A DNA stretch of 30,068 nt from a virus (lineage: Duplodnaviria; Heunggongvirae; Uroviricota; Caudoviricetes). The notes beneath the pieces were generated by a model, which was not told the DNA's origin, ran no database searches, and saw only the letters and a list, made by a program, of their open reading frames with translations. Shown piece by piece: positions 156 to 7,737 of the stretch. The DNA lies in IMG/VR virus record IMGVR_UViG_2706794678_000007; one strand, given 5' to 3'. Position 1 is the first letter of the stretch, and each line of letters opens with the position of its first letter. The translations under genes were made by a program, and so were the position numbers.

Positions 156-917
156 ATGGAGACTGTTTTTGACGCACTGAAAGCAATGGGAAAAGCCACA
201 TCCATAGAACTTGCTGCGCGACTTGATATCAGTCGTGAAGAAGTGCTGAACGAACTATGGGAACTGAAAAAAGCTGGTTTCGTTGATAAAAGCGCGTACA
301 CCTGGCGTGTGGCTGATAACAACGTTCAGCAGGAACAGCCAATGCAGGCAGAACTGCCGGAAGAAACCACCACGGCAACTGTAGTGAAAATCTCAGAGTG
401 CGATTTAACCGCGACGATTGAACAACGCGGACCACAAACGGCGGATGAACTGGCTACGCTGTTCGGTACAACATCCCGCAAAGTTGCTTCAACGCTGGCA
501 ATGGCAATCAGCAAAGGACGCCTGATTCGCGTAAACCAGAACAGTAAATTTCGTTACTGCATGCCGGGCGATAATTTACCAGCAGAGCCGAAAGCTGCAT
601 CGGTAGCGGAAACTGATGGTAAAGCCTTTCCTCAGCCAGCCGGTGTTGCGTTACCAGTACAGGAAGCGGCAACACAGGAAGATATTAAAACAGAAACTGT
701 GGCGGACATTGTGCAGTCGCTGCCATCGTTTACTGAAACGCAAGCGGATGACCTAGTTTTACCATCGCTGCATATGGCAAACCGCGAACTGCGTCGGGCG
801 AAAAATCATGTCCAGAAGTGGGAGCGAGTCTGCGCCGCGCTGCGGGAGCTGAACAAGCACCGGGATATTGTCCGACAGATTGTCGATTCCTCCAGTCGTA
901 TTGTGTCGGAAAAGTGA
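156..917 (+). CDS. prophage early-region protein with N-terminal winged-helix-like domain (hypothetical)
   Basis: ATG at 156 preceded by GGAGG (142-147); ORF-track frame 105..917. N-terminus ([29 protein letters not shown]) looks like a wHTH DNA-binding fold; acidic low-complexity middle. Confidence 0.6.
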
Positions 918-932
918 TTGCCGGAGGCGCTT

Positions 933-1349
933 ATGGCAAAAGTTTTTACACAGGAAGAGCGTGAAAAAATTAAGGAGCAGGTTGTTGAGTTGGTACGCCA
1001 GAGTGGGCGCGAGACGTTAAGGCAACTGGAGGCCAAGACAGGTGCGACAAGATATCTGATGAGCATTCTTGCCAGAGAGTTGGTTGCCAGTGGCGATGTA
1101 TACAACTCTGGCTATGGGTTATTCCCGTCTGAACAGGCTCGTAAGGATTGGAAAAACGCCCGCAAAAAACTATCCAGGGCAAAGGTGAAAAAAACGGTTG
1201 TGGTTGATCCTGACCTTATCTGGTCATTACCAGACGGAGAAATACGCCGCTATGACAGGCGTCAGAACATAATCTGTCGCGAGTGCCGGAAGAGTGAAGT
1301 TATGAAACGTGTACTGGCATTTTATCAAGGAAATCTTCGGTATTTATAG
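933..1349 (+). CDS. hypothetical prophage protein (wHTH-like N-terminus, basic C-terminus)
   Basis: ATG at 933 with GGAGG at 923-927; the ORF-track start at 918 is an upstream extension. Immediately follows the previous gene. Confidence 0.6.
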   Translation: MAKVFTQEEREKIKEQVVELVRQSGRETLRQLEAKTGATRYLMSILARELVASGDVYNSGYGLFPSEQARKDWKNARKKLSRAKVKKTVVVDPDLIWSLPDGEIRRYDRRQNIICRECRKSEVMKRVLAFYQGNLRYL

Positions 1350-1386
1350 ACGTTACTAGATCAAAGAGCATTAGTTCATATGTAAA

Positions 1387-1392
1387 TTGACA
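1387..1392 (+). promoter_or_regulatory. candidate -35 element (perfect TTGACA) upstream of the low-GC cassette; no convincing -10 found
   Basis: TTGACA at 1387-1392, about 95 nt upstream of the cassette start; followed by inverted repeat GTCCGCT-N10-AGCGGAC (1425-1448). Confidence 0.25.
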
Positions 1393-1487
1393 TTTTTCTG
1401 GCACAGGGGAGAGCTAGCGTGGTTGTCCGCTTTGTGCCAATAGCGGACATTGCTGGCTCATGGTATGTTAGTTTAAGGAGGCAGGTT

Positions 1488-2510
1488 ATGCCCTGTATTT
1501 CGCTGTGGTATAATAGTTGCGCAATTGATACAAGGGAGCGTTACATCGTGAAAATTGTTTTCGAGGTTAATGGAAAGAAAGTTCCACTAAAATCTTTAAA
1601 ATACATAAGCAAAAAAGATCAACTCGAAGTAATGAAAAACTGGTTCTTTGAAAACTTTGAAGATCCGGCAAATGCTTGTCCGTATGAAAGTAGAGAAGGT
1701 GGCTATGCTTACATATATGGCGGGCCGTATGATGCGAGCGAAGAACTACAATCCATCTTCGGTCAATATGTTAAATCTGAGTATATTGAGGAATTAGTAG
1801 ATGAATTACAAACACAATGTTTTGACTGGTCTGGAAACTCAAATAATATAGATGATTGGTACGATGATGATATCTACGACGCTGTAACGTCTTCCGGTAA
1901 TCCGTATTTAAAATTCATTGATAATATCGATAAAATAAAAAAACTTGCAAAAGATAAAACTGAACAACAGCAAAAAAACCACTTGCTTAGTTTGCTCTAC
2001 ACGAATGTTATTACAGCTTTGGAAACGCTTTATGTTGAGCTATTCATTAATTCTATAGAGAAAGATGATGTCTACATAGCCAATTGTATAGAAAAAGGTA
2101 AGACTGAATTTAAAGTAAGCAAAGATATTGCTGCGTTGCCTTTCAAGGGTGAACCCATCGAGAAAATTAGGGGAGAGCTAATCAGGTCAATCAAGGAACA
2201 CTTGATCAGTGCAAGCTGGCATAGCACTAAAAAGGTAATCGACCGCTATGAAGCTACATTCGATATAAAAGTACAAAAAGACTGTCCGATAGAAGCTATT
2301 GAATTGGCAACCCTCAATCGAAATCACTTAGTGCATCGTGGTGGAAAGGATAAAGAAGGGAACCTCGTAGTGATTACAGACCAGGATCTTGAAACGCTGA
2401 TTGAAAATGCATCGAACCTGGCAATTATGCTCTACAACAGTTTAAATGTAGCAACGAATAAAACCACCATTTTGCAACCAGATGACAAACCGTTCATTCA
2501 TGAATTTTAA
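1488..2510 (+). CDS. hypothetical protein with C-terminal HEPN-type Rx4-6H motif (LNRNHLVHRGG); candidate Abi-like RNase effector
   Basis: ATG at 1488 preceded by strong SD AAGGAGG (1475-1481, 6-nt spacer); same frame as ORF-track 1419..2510. Markedly AT-rich relative to flanking phage genes. R(2319-2321)-N-H-L-V-H(2334-2336) fits the HEPN catalytic signature near the C-terminus. Alternative start GTG 1549. Confidence 0.6.
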   Translation: MPCISLWYNSCAIDTRERYIVKIVFEVNGKKVPLKSLKYISKKDQLEVMKNWFFENFEDPANACPYESREGGYAYIYGGPYDASEELQSIFGQYVKSEYIEELVDELQTQCFDWSGNSNNIDDWYDDDIYDAVTSSGNPYLKFIDNIDKIKKLAKDKTEQQQKNHLLSLLYTNVITALETLYVELFINSIEKDDVYIANCIEKGKTEFKVSKDIAALPFKGEPIEKIRGELIRSIKEHLISASWHSTKKVIDRYEATFDIKVQKDCPIEAIELATLNRNHLVHRGGKDKEGNLVVITDQDLETLIENASNLAIMLYNSLNVATNKTTILQPDDKPFIHEF

Positions 2511-2525
2511 TAGCGCAGGTCATAC

Positions 2526-3527
2526 ATGGATATTCGCACACGAAAGACAAAATTTTTAGAGTCGTTAGATTCAACTGAAGTGATACGCAAAGCAGTAAGT
2601 CTCGCTATAGATTGCATTATTGATAATCATAATAGTAATGAAGATACCCCCTTAGTTATTACCAGCTATGATGATCTCTGTAGAATCCAGGTGCTAAATT
2701 ATGTACAGGAGTTTTGCGAAGCTGCATTCCCTGATATGGATGAATATTACTTTAGTCCTAACATACTTCGCATCAACGGCAAGACTAGTGAAGAAGCTTG
2801 TATTAACTTAATTAAACTCTTAAGAAGTACAAAAGGCATGCTATTCTGGTCCGATGCCCCATCGTGGTTCGCTAGCCTCCCCGACGGATTATTCCATGTT
2901 GTTAACATTGATCAAAAAATCGTTACTCGCGGCCTTAATAAGAAAAACTCTAAGCCGACAATAATCAATAAAGATTACAGTGTAGATACACTACTATCAG
3001 AGCTATTTTTGAATGGCGCACACATGGAGCAACCCAACGTACACAACGTTTCTGAGGGAAACATGAAGTTCTATGATGAATGCCATGCTGGATTAATCAG
3101 ACCAATACCCGCTCCAATAGGCGCGTCATACGATGAAGAGATCACAATTAATTCTCCAGATTGGCAAAAGCTCGCGTGTGTAGCTTTACGCCGCTATCAG
3201 TCGAAGGAATGTCATGACGGAATGCAATGGGATACAACCGATCATGGTTGGACTGATGTAATCGCGTATCCATTCGTCGAAGAAATACAATCAATGGATA
3301 ATAGTGGTTATCGACAATGTTTAGTTGGGCTGGTCACAATAAACAATTCAAATGCAAATTCTCCGTACCTATCTACCGTTTGGATACATCCATTTTATCG
3401 CAGGAGAGGGTTATTAAGTAAGTTATGGCCAAAATTACAAGAGTTATATGGAAGTAACTTCGAAATTGAGCGACCTAATGAAAATATGAAAGCATTTCTG
3501 AAAAGTGCGAAACACGCAGATTACTAA
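2526..3527 (+). CDS. hypothetical protein, C-terminal region resembling a GNAT acetyltransferase core (…VWIHPFYRRRGLLSKLW…)
   Basis: ATG at 2526, 15 nt after the previous stop (operon-like). AT-rich codon usage like the upstream gene. C-terminal P-x3-R-x2-G-L-L-x2-L resembles GNAT motif A; pattern recognition only, not verified. Confidence 0.55.
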   Translation: MDIRTRKTKFLESLDSTEVIRKAVSLAIDCIIDNHNSNEDTPLVITSYDDLCRIQVLNYVQEFCEAAFPDMDEYYFSPNILRINGKTSEEACINLIKLLRSTKGMLFWSDAPSWFASLPDGLFHVVNIDQKIVTRGLNKKNSKPTIINKDYSVDTLLSELFLNGAHMEQPNVHNVSEGNMKFYDECHAGLIRPIPAPIGASYDEEITINSPDWQKLACVALRRYQSKECHDGMQWDTTDHGWTDVIAYPFVEEIQSMDNSGYRQCLVGLVTINNSNANSPYLSTVWIHPFYRRRGLLSKLWPKLQELYGSNFEIERPNENMKAFLKSAKHADY

Positions 3528-3710
3528 TTTATGAATCAGTCTGTGGAGTTAGGGTTGGTGTGAACAAGTAGGGTAAGAGCCTCAACGTGATGCTATGCCG
3601 ACCTGCTCCCTGAGAATTCACACAGAAGGCTGCTAGCAATGTCTGCAGATCGCTCAAAGCGGACTAAAATGTTGGCTTGTTTCTGACTTAGAGCATTTAA
3701 GGAAGTGCTG

Positions 3711-3929
3711 GTGGTGACTGGTTGTTGTGTTCCATTTCTACAGAATAAAATCACAGAAACTATACCCAATAGTTGTATTGAATCACTGACGAGACAGCCT
3801 CATATTTATCAGGACTGGTGTGCGTCTAATACAGGGGGTTGTCGTGCTGGTTCTCAAATGTGCGCTGGCTATTGCGGCTGTAATGGCAATTTATTGTCTT
3901 GCTGTTGTTCTTATGGAGCGGCTTTCTGA
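3711..3929 (+). CDS. possible small cysteine-rich protein (11 Cys in about 72 aa); uncertain
   Basis: ORF-track 3705..3929. AAGGA at 3700-3704 with GTG at 3711 gives the best spacing. No recognised homology. Confidence 0.2.
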   Translation: MVTGCCVPFLQNKITETIPNSCIESLTRQPHIYQDWCASNTGGCRAGSQMCAGYCGCNGNLLSCCCSYGAAF

Positions 3930-4081
3930 TTGATTACATACTGGCTAGAAAAAAGGTGTTACCTTGGTTTATCTTTGTCCGGCAAGGTGCGCTCATTAAT
4001 CTTAAGTAAATTTATTGCTCAAGTATTCAGATTACTTCTTATGGTTGAAGTCTCCTGTCAATGTAGAACCAATATATTTAC

Positions 4082-4118
4082 AAAAATGAGACCCGTCGGG
4101 GATAGCCCTGCCGGGTCT
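4082..4118 (-). terminator. rho-independent terminator for the minus-strand yeaR-like gene
   Basis: Stem AGACCCG (4089-4095) / CGGGTCT (4112-4118); on the minus strand the hairpin is followed by a T-run (reverse complement of 4082-4088). Lies about 30 nt past the stop at 4148. Confidence 0.45.
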
Positions 4119-4147
4119 GACTGTTAAAGCATTTTTAATATGATCAT

Positions 4148-4486
4148 CTATTTTTTGGTGCTATAGACTTTTTCGCCCGAAAAGTCTGGAGCGACCCAAA
4201 AGTTAATATTAAACTGAGCATCATCGCTTAGTTCAACACGGTGCCAGTATTGTGGTGGGCTTGTTGCAAAAGCGCCAGCATTAATGACTACTTTTATCTC
4301 CGGTTCAGTAGCATTCTCATCAGTAAAACCATAATATGTTACAGTGCCTTCCATTACGCACAACTGCCCAAAAACACCTGCTGCTGTATTATGATGTGTT
4401 AATAACGCTGAAGGTACGTTCTCTTTTGTGAAGAACGGAGTTGAGCGTTTGATTACCCAATCTTTAGGAATTCTCTTGTGTGTCAT
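4148..4486 (-). CDS. DUF1971 family protein, YeaR-like
   Basis: Minus-strand ORF-track 4148..4510. Start trimmed to the ATG at 4486, which has SD GGAGGAGG (reverse complement of 4491-4498). Length about 112 aa and motifs (RSTPFF…, FNINFWVAP) resemble E. coli YeaR as I remember it. Confidence 0.75.
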   Translation of the reverse strand: MTHKRIPKDWVIKRSTPFFTKENVPSALLTHHNTAAGVFGQLCVMEGTVTYYGFTDENATEPEIKVVINAGAFATSPPQYWHRVELSDDAQFNINFWVAPDFSGEKVYSTKK

Positions 4487-4501
4487 AACCACCTCCTCCA
4501 A

Positions 4502-4524
4502 AACATGCATTAAAAATGCATCTT
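4502..4524 (-). promoter_or_regulatory. candidate NsrR operator (11-1-11 inverted repeat) in the yeaR-like promoter
   Basis: AACATGCATTA-A-AAATGCATCTT closely matches the NsrR consensus AAnATGCATTT-n-AAATGCATnTT. Sits 16-38 nt upstream of the start codon; a TTGACA -35 on the minus strand lies at 4536-4541. Confidence 0.5.
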
Positions 4525-5299
4525 TTGGAGGGTTATGTCAAGCTGTTATGAAACACATAATTGATATGTTGATTAGAGGAGAAGATAGAATAAATATGGT
4601 TGTTTTTCGTATAACTATTTGTTTTACTTTTAGTTTATGCATTCTGTGTGTTAGGAATAAGTTATTAAAGTTTAATCAAAAAATCTCGATGTAGTCCACA
4701 TAGATTACTGTTACTGAACCTTATTGTGTGTATTAGTTGTGTTCTGAAATTTCAGCTTAATTATTTATGATGTATTTTTTAACGATAAATATTTTCCCAG
4801 GATACCTTTACTGTGTATATAAATAAATTATATACGCATAAATAATGTAAAGGCGTCCTTTTAGATATATCTTATCAAATGTTAATGACTTGAGTGGGAA
4901 ATATGATTCCAGCAACTTATCATGTGGCTACTTTATAAAAATAATGCCCATATAAAACAACAAGCGAAAAGGATTACGGATAAAAAAGGAGCGAGATGTG
5001 CGAACTTGTTATTTTCCATGTTTAACCACCTTAAATAATTGATGATGACGGGATGATTGCATCTGTAATGCTTTTATTGAAATGTTATGATAAAAAAGAA
5101 CTTTTGCATAACATTAAAATGTAATTTATCTAATCGTTTTTAATAATAAGTGTCGTATTTCTATCCTTGTACCAGCTATTTGATATGTAGTGTTTGTTCA
5201 TGCTATGTGGGGCTTTACACCATAGCCAGTTTATTTATACTTTATTCGTCAGCCTGAACAACTGGCATCTGCTGCGCTGCGCCATCGAGAGATTGAGAA

Positions 5300-5899
5300 A
5301 TGGCGCATATACAACTGGTCAAACAAACCTCTTCTGGTTTACTTCTCCCGGCGACGCCGGAGAGTTGCGATTTTCTGCATCAAATCAAAATAGGTGAGTG
5401 GATACACGCAGACTTTAAGCGTGTGCGTAACTACGCATTCCACAAGCGTTTTTTCAAACTCCTGCAACTGGGATTCGATTACTGGACTCCGGTCGGTGGG
5501 GCGATCACGCCTCGCGAACGAGAACTGCTGTCTGGTTTCGTTGATTACCTGTGCGAATCAGTTGGTCGGGAACACACGCCAGCCCTGAGTGATGCCGCAG
5601 AGCAATACCTTAACACCGTTGCGACTCGTAGAACCCGGGATACGGCGTTGCTAAAGTCGTTTGAGGCTTTCCGCGAGTGGGTAACCATTCAGGCCGGATT
5701 TTACACCGAGCATATTTATCCGGACGGTAGCCGTGGGCGTCGGGCAAAATCCATCGCTTTTGCGAATATGGACGAAGTCGAGTTTCAGCAGGTTTATAAA
5801 TCTGTACTGAATGTGCTGTGGAACTGGATTCTGTTCCGTAAATTCTCCTCTCAGGAGGAAGTTGAAAATGTGGCCGCACAACTACTGGAGTTTGCGTAA
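5300..5899 (+). CDS. nin-region protein, DUF1367-like (YbcN-like)
   Basis: ORF 5300..5899, immediately upstream of the YbcO-like gene and Q, matching nin-region order in lambdoid prophages. Family assignment from memory. Confidence 0.65.
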   Translation: MAHIQLVKQTSSGLLLPATPESCDFLHQIKIGEWIHADFKRVRNYAFHKRFFKLLQLGFDYWTPVGGAITPRERELLSGFVDYLCESVGREHTPALSDAAEQYLNTVATRRTRDTALLKSFEAFREWVTIQAGFYTEHIYPDGSRGRRAKSIAFANMDEVEFQQVYKSVLNVLWNWILFRKFSSQEEVENVAAQLLEFA

Positions 5900-6189
5900 T
5901 GGTGAATTTACGTAAAGCGGCTAAAGGCCAGATGTGCCAGATCAGAATCCCTGGCTACTGCAATCACAATCCCGAAACCTCTGTGCTGGCGCATTACAGG
6001 CTGGCGGGGACGTGCGGAACAGCGACAAAACCACATGATATGCAGGCGGCGATAGCCTGTAGCTCATGCCACGATCTAATCGACGGGCGGGTAAAAACCA
6101 GCGATTACACCAAAGAAGAATTGCGCCTGATGCATGCTGAAGGGGTTTTTCGCACACAAGAAATCTGGAGAAAGAAAGGTCATTTATGA
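5899..6189 (+). CDS. DUF1364 family protein (YbcO-like, Cys-rich putative nuclease/zinc-binding)
   Basis: 96 aa, Cys-rich (CQIRIPGYCNH…CSSCHD). Stop of the previous gene overlaps its start. Same length and nin-region position as DLP12 YbcO. Confidence 0.7.
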   Translation: MVNLRKAAKGQMCQIRIPGYCNHNPETSVLAHYRLAGTCGTATKPHDMQAAIACSSCHDLIDGRVKTSDYTKEELRLMHAEGVFRTQEIWRKKGHL

Positions 6190-6728
6190 TTTACCCAACG
6201 AATACAGGAAAAAGCGGAGAACACCTTCGCCTCACCACGCTGGAAAGTGTCTGGATTCAGGGAAAACTACGTATGTGGGGGCGCTGGTCGTATATTGGCG
6301 GTGGCAGGTCAGGGAATATGTTCAATCAGTTGTTGGCATCCAAAAAACTGACGAAAACAGCCATTAATGAAGCCCTGCGCAGAATGAAAAAAGCGGGAAT
6401 AGAGAAAGCTGAGCTGGAAGCGTTTTTGCGAGAGATGATCAACGGCAAGCAAAAGAGCTGGCTGGCGCATTGTACTGATGCAGAGGCGTTATGTATTGAT
6501 CGAGTCATAAGTGAGGTGCTGGCAGAGCATCCAGGATTGATTTGCATTCTCCGGCAACGCTATGAAGGGCGGGGGATGACTAAGCGCAAAATGGCTGAAT
6601 TGCTAAATGATGCACACCCAGAGTGGTGTTTTAGCACATGCGAAAAACGGATTGCTAATTGGTTAGCTGTTGCTGAGTATGCCCTATATATTCCCATGCG
6701 TGAATCATTTGCTGAGAAAATGGCTTGA
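6186..6728 (+). CDS. Q: late-gene antiterminator Q (Phage_antitermQ-like)
   Basis: Sits after nin genes and before the lysis cassette. W-G-R-W motif (LRMWGRWSY) resembles the QuuD-family signature. Overlaps the upstream gene by 4 nt. Confidence 0.6.
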   Translation: MIYPTNTGKSGEHLRLTTLESVWIQGKLRMWGRWSYIGGGRSGNMFNQLLASKKLTKTAINEALRRMKKAGIEKAELEAFLREMINGKQKSWLAHCTDAEALCIDRVISEVLAEHPGLICILRQRYEGRGMTKRKMAELLNDAHPEWCFSTCEKRIANWLAVAEYALYIPMRESFAEKMA

Positions 6729-7185: not shown

Positions 7186-7737
7186 TGGTTTATTGTATGC
7201 CAAATGATTATTAAAAAGGTTGTGTTAATAACAAGATCCGAAATAATATGCCTGCATATTTTTATCTTGCTTATATTCTGCATATTGTGCATAGCAGGCT
7301 CATCCCTGCAATCAAAACTGTATGATGAGTATTTTTTGTTTTCCTTTTTTCCAGTCATCTGATGATGACCTGCTTCTTTTTAATCCGGATCGACATCAGT
7401 TTTTTAAGATAATTCCTGCGAGTTATATGCATAAATGCCACAAACTCCGCATTTTATGTGGTTGGGAGTTGCCGGGCGCGCAGTGAGTTTGCTAAGAAAA
7501 CTCCTGCATGGTGAATCCCCCTGTGCGGTGGGGTGATACCATTAACCTTTTCTGTCGCCGACAGGTATCACGAACATTTTGTTCACCGGGAGGCACCCGG
7601 CACCATGCACTTCAATAGATTCTCTCCACATTATGGATATTCTTTCAGAATATCCCACGCAGACTTTGTGTAAATGTTAACAAATGTGCGTTTTATTTGA
7701 TCTGATTCGCTGTTTGAGCGTCCAAAACAACGGTATA

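Follow-up and report, generated by a model that had tools for sequence, protein, structure and literature searches.

A prophage-borne HEPN protein of Escherichia coli as a candidate single-protein abortive-infection RNase, and its GNAT-fold neighbour

Two adjacent AT-rich genes in a Caudoviricetes sequence of 30,068 nucleotides (nt) (IMG/VR record IMGVR_UViG_2706794678_000007, the whole of which is called the window below) raise the question of whether they form one two-component defence system or are two separate pieces of cargo that happen to share a site. The first, gene A (1548-2510, + strand), encodes a protein with a HEPN domain, and the second, gene B (2526-3527, + strand), a protein that ends in a GNAT-like fold. 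A preliminary description of this DNA had read the two as a toxin-antitoxin or abortive-infection pair. On balance we lean towards a different answer, namely that A is a self-contained, single-protein abortive-infection (Abi) RNase, the HEPN counterpart of the aRES proteins, which join the same N-terminal domain to a RES effector, and that B is not its obligatory antitoxin. For B itself, we see two possible roles, that of independent cargo or that of an optional modulator of A which one clade acquired recently.

Gene A encodes 320 amino acids (aa; WP_014639476), comprising an N-terminal HEPN/RES-NTD1 domain (NTD1; PF18870; about aa 1-115, 1548-1892, + strand), presumed to be a sensor or regulatory domain, followed by a HEPN domain folded as a helical bundle (about aa 135-310, 1950-2477, + strand), so that the whole is a predicted RNase. 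The HEPN domain contains the catalytic-type Rx4H motif R258-N-H-L-V-H263 (2319-2336, + strand), in which a polar residue follows the arginine. The preliminary description had taken the peptide LNRNHLVHRGG (aa 256-266) for the HEPN Rx4-6H signature, and this identification is borne out by the match of A to the helical-bundle HEPN fold and by the invariance of R258, H263 and R264 among 51 aligned homologues that extend down to 26% identity. E159 and W224-H225 are also invariant in this alignment, in which very few residues are invariant overall. A is a HEPN protein, and its motif predicts that it is an RNase. The N-terminal domain carries the near-invariant motif FEDP..PYES.EGGY.YI.GGPYDA. PF18870 matches 49 of the 51 aligned family members (E up to 0.01) and is listed for many A homologues in precomputed Pfam annotation; PF18735 (HEPN_RiboL-PSP) matches 25 of the 51 (best E 7e-11), and the UniRef entry for a protein identical to A is named “RiboL-PSP-HEPN domain-containing protein”. 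The architecture itself was published in 2013 (PMC3710099), so the protein that had at first seemed to match no nameable family does have one.

NTD1 also occurs outside this architecture, fused to PIN_8 nucleases or to unrecognised C-terminal domains. In PIN_8 nuclease proteins (P0117; L070 376-1623; L211 4909-6279) it stands at the C-terminus, and in many proteins of about 260-300 aa, some of them alphaproteobacterial (L054-L081), it stands at the N-terminus ahead of a C-terminal half that has no Pfam match and may represent further types of effector for the NTD1 sensor. A match to RNase E/G in one of these loci (L065) was discounted, as the stop-to-stop open reading frame (ORF) may extend into the adjacent gene.

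If A were one half of an obligatory pair, B should accompany it throughout the family. Both profiles were run over 80 genome loci retrieved with that of A, 45 metagenome loci retrieved with that of B and 79 viral-contig loci retrieved with the two. Adjacency of A and B is confined to close relatives, those in which B is at least 73% identical, the named hits being Enterobacterales and Aeromonas. A is found, at up to 76% identity, with no B within 6 kb in some 58 loci, of which about 45 are genome loci and 13 are viral contigs; their sources run from Yersinia and Aeromonas to Acidobacteriota, Chloroflexota, cyanobacteria and an archaeon. Distant homologues of B (up to 56% identity, many from marine samples) occur in turn without A. 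When 474 ORFs that neighbour solo A or solo B were compared all against all by BLAST, no family recurred at more than three loci and no substitute partner emerged. The neighbours of solo A include integrases, M78/HTH (helix-turn-helix) pairs, ResIII, Fic, MNT, transposases and AbiJ_NTD3, neighbourhoods typical of mobile and defence regions. The co-occurrence across the family that marks a type II toxin-antitoxin system is therefore absent here, the two genes keeping company in one clade and living apart elsewhere.

Within that clade, either gene is found to have been lost while the other persists. In three contigs (L097, L154 and L155) the leader, a promoter-like element and B (86% identity) are kept, A is reduced to a short remnant, and the flanks differ. 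The converse is seen in the finished genome of strain EC2 (L214 21147-22149), where A is intact and B is frameshifted by a 1-nt non-homopolymer insertion at window position ~2818, at which AAACT-CTTAAG has become AAACTACTTAAG. Three wastewater isolates (SW0716xx) give a match of 2152 nt, the same length as in EC2, and probably share the intact A and frameshifted B. A metagenome contig (L105) likewise has an intact A and a frameshifted B; in another locus A is frameshifted and B intact (L087), and in a third A is truncated (L142). Because of these natural single-gene losses (L097, L154, L155, EC2 and L087), neither gene appears to need the other for survival of the cell, which argues against a classical toxin-antitoxin relationship in either direction. 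Together with the confinement of the pair to close relatives and the lack of a conserved partner elsewhere, these losses tell against the toxin-antitoxin pair first proposed.

Two further rearrangements were encountered in this clade. In E. coli MB56 (NZ_CP073936; L215 701-4063), two copies of the IS3-family element ISSen4 bracket A, one inserted between the promoter region and A and the other between A and B, where it alters the start of B; the layout recalls a composite transposon, and A is probably cut off from its promoter. In an E. coli fusion protein of 320 aa (P0147 and P0148), a deletion that removed DUF1627, DUF977, A and the start of B has joined residues 1-118 of the DnaC-like replication protein of the prophage, Walker A motif included, to residue 133 onwards of B.

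A role for A in defence or abortive infection is plausible for three reasons. First, aRES shares the NTD1 of A and defends against phages. Second, NTD1 is also found on PIN_8 nucleases and on unrecognised C-terminal domains, as one sensor with swappable effectors. Third, solo HEPN defences encoded by prophages are documented, among them HepS, which occupies an equivalent slot, and Tha-1, which has a similar layout. A sensor domain with exchangeable effectors is the pattern of Abi proteins. We infer that NTD1 would keep A inactive and sense a cue of infection, upon which the C-terminal HEPN domain would be switched on. HEPN domains are usually dimers in which paired Rx4H motifs form the active site (PMC13043305), and the active protein would then cut cellular RNA (tRNA, mRNA or rRNA), halt growth and so stop the incoming phage. 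By analogy, A may be functionally comparable to the prophage solo-HEPN defences HepS and Tha.

Several observations weigh against this reading of A. On the protein of the window itself, PF18870 scores 22.2 bits (aa 26-92, E 1.9e-4), below its gathering score of 27.4, and PF18735 gives no match at E up to 1. Pfam scans of 18 ORFs with NTD1 only and of P0117 returned PIN_8 and unrecognised C-terminal domains and no RES, and a word-indexed protein search with the N-terminal domain of A recovered only fragments of its own family and again no NTD1-RES protein; the link between aRES and A thus rests on Pfam and two papers, with no NTD1-RES protein among the surveyed loci. PADLOC v2 (PADLOC-DB v2), a check that the preliminary description had suggested, recognised no defence system, with only noise for A (E at least 0.01, 13 bits) and nothing for B; both proteins fall in PHROG families of unknown function, and none of PADLOC, NCBIfam and PHROGs supplies a functional name for either. 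Our literature search found no experiment on A or on any NTD1-HEPN protein. Isolated phage genomes essentially lack the cassette, with neither gene present at close identity. The survey of solo-A neighbourhoods is a crude sample and not an enrichment statistic, and the frameshift of B in EC2 could be an assembly error. Finally, where A and B do occur together they behave as a unit: wherever the pair is intact the spacer measures 15 nt (14 nt in one case), over a protein divergence of 17-22%, and the two proteins diverge in parallel, A from 100 to 83% and B from 100 to 78% identity, with similar dS. From the fixed spacer and this co-divergence, a functional interaction limited to the pair-carrying clade is possible.

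What B is bears on each of the alternatives. Gene B encodes 333 aa (WP_000354966), and its model, built from 45 homologues, has a pLDDT (predicted local distance difference test) of 90.6. The N-terminal alpha/beta domain (about aa 1-175, 2526-3050, + strand) is confidently modelled and is an orphan: no relatives beyond its own family turned up among 1.84 billion proteins searched by profile, and a like search of Protein Data Bank (PDB) sequences gave no match at E up to 10. The C-terminal domain (about aa 176-333, 3051-3524, + strand) is a GNAT fold in the model, as the preliminary description had supposed from its sequence; all the listed fold-search matches of B are acetyltransferases, the MNT fold is not among them, and no significant sequence relative of B was found in the PDB. 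The segment STVWIHPFYRRRGLLSKLW corresponds to aa 283-301. Within it, R292-R-R-G295-L-L (3399-3416) stands after strand beta4, where the acetyl-CoA loop motif R/Q-x-x-G-x-G/A is expected; R292 is invariant, G295 is common without being universal, and L, M or V stands at the end where G/A would be expected. In the model the chain stops after helix alpha4, and the usual C-terminal strands are absent. PF00583 scores 19.9 bits on B against a gathering score of 20.7, a threshold that some relatives of B pass. Cofactor binding by B is plausible, and its GNAT-fold domain, any enzymatic activity of which is a prediction, is probably acyl-CoA-dependent.

The profile search of 1.84 billion proteins places the GNAT-like half of B in a family whose members stand alone and are about 160 aa long (E 1e-71 to 1e-20). 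Of four that were inspected, three come immediately behind a helicase-like gene, which encodes a DUF3987 protein in the phage contig L131 (locus 2691-4483), an 802-aa protein in L132 (locus 536-3420) and an AAA_25 protein in L133 (locus 3-1570); in the first two loci the reading frames overlap. The fourth follows rpoD on a chromosome. This hints at a link between the GNAT-like family of B and phage replication modules. The idea that the N-terminal domain of B is a remnant of the helicase genes that precede these small homologues was tried with hhalign, which found nothing. Since B survives alone with a promoter and has phage-associated relatives, it can be read as independent cargo.

The surroundings of the cassette fit the cargo interpretation. 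In FORC_081 and EC2 it lies in a Rac-like prophage at ttcA, flanked on one side by the replication module (ydaU, ydaV, DUF1627 and DUF977, of which ydaU and ydaV are pseudogenes in the host prophages) and on the other by DUF1367/DUF1364/DUF1133 genes. The slot immediately after the DUF977 gene varies among E. coli prophages (L128, L129 and L130) and is often followed by hokD; depending on the strain, it holds QueH (epoxyqueuosine reductase) and hokD, or unrelated genes with an integrase fragment, and in a Qin-like backbone (dicB, ydfABCD) it holds the A+B cassette, then hokD. The cassette (about 1453-3527) is cargo, and the slot that it occupies in lambdoid prophages, Rac-like or Qin-like, is variable; the accessory position that had been suggested for it, in the early/nin hot spot, is confirmed, the cassette lying between the replication and the nin/Q-like genes. 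Of 5426 complete E. coli genomes, 205 (about 4%) carry it, including the type strain ATCC 11775 and the extraintestinal pathogenic strains (ExPEC) S88 and IHE3034, with both genes annotated as “hypothetical protein” throughout, and it is present in many predicted prophage contigs.

This setting invites the alternative that the cassette serves the prophage itself, with A acting in addiction or post-segregational stabilisation or as an RNase in the takeover of a host or competitor, and with B acetylating a host or replication factor or acting in counter-defence. The location of the cassette after the replication module, the small GNAT homologues that directly follow helicase-like replication genes in phage contigs, the PHROG membership of both proteins in families of unknown function and the persistence of B alone with its promoter are all in keeping with such a role. 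We nevertheless regard it as unlikely, given that most homologues of A lie in non-phage chromosomal or mobile-island settings across many phyla, that NTD1 is tied to a validated host-defence protein (aRES), that the solo HEPN proteins of the same prophage slot are defence proteins, and that a chromosomal rpoD precedes one of the four small GNAT homologues inspected.

The idea that A and B are one two-component system, in which B is an antitoxin or regulator that binds or acetylates A (type II or type VII-like), or in which B senses and A executes, is in our judgement improbable. The two genes are co-oriented, and the 15-nt spacer (2511-2525, + strand) holds a weak GCAGG Shine-Dalgarno sequence and no terminator, which implies, as far as sequence can, that they are co-transcribed. 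Added to the fixed length of this spacer and the parallel divergence described above, all 42 close-clade viral-contig loci with both full genes keep them adjacent, and the enzymatic neutralisation of a HEPN toxin has a precedent in MntA, which AMPylates HepT (PMC7641770). Against this stand the restriction of the pairing to relatives whose B is at least 73% identical, the roughly 58 more distant A loci without B and the distant B loci without A, the lack of any conserved substitute partner beside either solo gene, the three contigs in which A is deleted and B kept, EC2 (and probably three more genomes) in which A is intact and B frameshifted, and the fold of B, which is not that of MNT. A narrower version would confine the interaction to the pair clade, where B would acylate A, or the phage or prophage trigger of A, allowing the prophage to mute its own Abi protein during induction; this we consider very doubtful, and equally doubtful its corollary, that such control would be “type VII-like”, with acetylation in place of AMPylation and B in the role that Ith plays for Tha.

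Least probable is that A and B are decaying, functionless cargo of defective prophages, a view for which one could cite the frameshifts in L087, L105 and EC2, the truncation in L142, the IS3 elements around A in MB56, the DnaC::B fusion (P0148) and the ydaU and ydaV pseudogenes of the host prophages, but which is at odds with an omega well below 1 for both genes at dS up to 0.65, with catalytic residues invariant across phyla, with proteins identical in hundreds of genomes and with the movement of the cassette between different prophage backbones. Both genes have homologues across many taxa, and the ratio of nonsynonymous to synonymous substitution rates among pair loci (dN/dS; dS up to 0.65) is 0.12-0.21 for A and 0.20-0.43 for B; for these reasons A and B are real genes under purifying selection.

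Returning to A as a self-contained Abi protein, the DNA around its start has the look of a module with its own signals. At the left edge of the cassette lies a hairpin with a 7-bp stem, TGTCCGC-N12-GCGGACA (1424-1449, + strand), with a fold energy of -17 kcal/mol (z -1.8), a value not significant alone. Similarity to cassette-less phages stops at about 1452, just past this hairpin, and the first 72 nt of 1380-3530 match the phages Tritos, Evi and 204576, which have no cassette. The hairpin is kept upstream of the A-deleted cassettes L097 and L154, whose flanks differ, and it could be a module-boundary or recombination sequence. About 34 nt before the start codon of A stands an extended -10 promoter-like element, TGgTATAAT (1506-1514, + strand), conserved as TGTGGTAYAAT in the majority of diverged pair loci and in the A-deleted cassettes. 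The extended -10 pattern occurs twice in the window against 1.45 expected, so the pattern alone is not rarer than chance; a scan with the sigma-70 consensus found sites no more numerous than in shuffled sequence and missed this element because its -35 is weak. We regard it as the putative promoter of the cassette, and the layout upstream of A would fit a moron with its own promoter.

The two genes are co-oriented with 15-nt spacing, and the coordinates of B and the end of A at 2510 are as the preliminary description gave them; its start for A, at 1488, is less secure. Gene A most likely starts at GTG 1548, giving 320 aa, as judged from the call of the Prokaryotic Genome Annotation Pipeline (PGAP; WP_014639476), from the alignment of all A homologues from MK(I/V)VF, from the replacement of ATG 1488 by ATA, TGC, TTG or ACA in relatives, and from an in-frame TAG within the extension in L099. 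A Shine-Dalgarno-like AAGGGAG (1532-1538, + strand; AAGGRRG in relatives) lies 9 nt before GTG 1548 and is likewise kept in the A-deleted cassettes. In this E. coli copy ATG 1488 is itself preceded by an ideal AAGGAGG Shine-Dalgarno sequence, so a 340-aa isoform may also be made, and PHROG 17908 uses the 340-aa form.

In base composition the two genes are as AT-rich as had been noticed, with a guanine-plus-cytosine (GC) content of 0.361 for A and 0.391 for B against 0.49 (1-1452) and about 0.50 (5250-6250) in flanking DNA; the window as a whole is at 0.457, and not at the roughly 0.50 that had been assumed for the backbone. Nor does the AT-rich region end with the cassette at 1380-3530, as had been proposed, since the low-GC tract runs on to about 5300 (3528-5299, 0.368 GC, with a minimum of 0.29 at 4500-5250). 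This further stretch, which contains a DUF1971 gene (4148-4510, - strand), its hairpin terminator (~4089-4117) and some 800 nt of very AT-rich sequence without any ORF of at least 100 aa, is probably separate cargo in the same slot. An Rfam scan of the cassette found no RNA families. Farther along the window, in the late-region leader of the prophage (7476-7662, + strand), stands a full-length match to the small RNA STnc100 (RF02076; 86.6 bits against a gathering score of 47).

Should A turn out to be protective against phages, no protein of the NTD1-HEPN architecture would have been tested before it, and NTD1 would emerge as a portable infection sensor that drives at least two unrelated effectors, the RES NADase of aRES and the HEPN RNase of A, and perhaps PIN as well; the trigger of NTD1 would then become an attractive target. 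A may shape phage susceptibility in clinically relevant lineages of E. coli, because about 4% of complete genomes, including ATCC 11775, S88 and IHE3034, carry the gene. The interest of B lies in the fusion of an orphan domain to a phage-associated GNAT-like family. Current views are not overturned, as solo HEPN Abi proteins in prophage accessory slots are an established theme. The family and architecture of A were already known from a prediction of 2013; of the A-B pair, literature searches with the accession numbers, for HEPN+GNAT systems and for DUF977 hotspots found no earlier description.

How A and B relate to known systems can be set out from the most distant to the closest. B shares its GNAT fold with TacT, AtaT, ItaT and KacT, toxins of type II toxin-antitoxin systems whose antitoxins are of the DUF1778 or ribbon-helix-helix (RHH) kind, which are similar in size to the C-terminal domain of B and its relatives of about 160 aa; it differs from them in its 175-aa orphan N-terminal domain, in the absence of the C-terminal strands and in surviving without A, and neither the window nor the solo-B loci have a DUF1778 or RHH gene beside B. 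In HepT/MntA, a type VII toxin-antitoxin system, an MNT partner AMPylates the toxin and the pair is obligatory, whereas the neighbour of A has a GNAT fold and is dispensable in nature. Tha-1 and Tha-2 are single-gene, Abi-like RNases encoded by prophages of Staphylococcus aureus, Tha-1 in phage 80alpha (PMC11087260). With its 301 aa, Tha-1 pairs an uncharacterised N-terminal half with a HEPN domain that bears R265x4H270 at the C-terminal end, a layout close to that of A; however, Pfam assigns its HEPN domain to the DUF4145/HepT-like type, its N-terminal domain is not NTD1, and homology to A was rejected at an hhalign probability of 1.6%. Tha also has a cognate prophage inhibitor, Ith. HepS (HEPN Solo), from the Gifsy-1 prophage of Salmonella, is a tRNA anticodon nuclease that is triggered by the tail-tip protein J and acts by abortive infection via RNA cleavage (PMC13043305). 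It resembles A in its lambdoid prophage, its accessory slot downstream of replication genes, its lack of a conserved partner and its Rx4H motif, and it differs in having a single HEPN domain of <250 aa (R100-H105), where A has 320 aa with the added N-terminal NTD1. HepS was not identifiable in the LT2 Gifsy-1 record, and the A profile has no significant match among PDB sequences.

Closest of all are the proteins that share NTD1. Anantharaman et al. (2013; PMC3710099) defined HEPN/RES-NTD1 computationally, with KPK_1764 of Klebsiella pneumoniae 342 as the prototype, described this domain of about 100 aa as fused to HEPN, RES and other domains, and likened the combination of an N-terminal domain with a nuclease to Abi proteins; a GNAT neighbour is not reported there (0 mentions). 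In their architecture a HEPN domain bearing Rx4-6H comes after the NTD1, as it does in A, and this appears to be the family to which A belongs; as to the type of HEPN domain, the fused one is of MAE_18760/MAE_28990-type in the paper, whereas that of the family is RiboL-PSP-type in Pfam. The aRES proteins are standalone PF18870 + RES proteins, three of which (from E. coli, Klebsiella and Enterobacter) protected E. coli against diverse phages by breaking down NAD+ and arresting growth (Osterman et al., bioRxiv 10.64898/2026.01.28.702374). A and aRES are alike in being encoded by a single gene, in the PF18870 N-terminal domain (for A at the level of the family), in standing alone (about 58 solo A loci) and in occurring in Enterobacteriaceae; they differ in their effector, aRES having a RES NAD+ phosphorylase and A a HEPN domain of RNase type. 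Because its C-terminal domain is HEPN and Pfam finds no RES match, A is not a member of aRES, and NAD+ chemistry is not expected of it; A is instead an architectural sibling of aRES.

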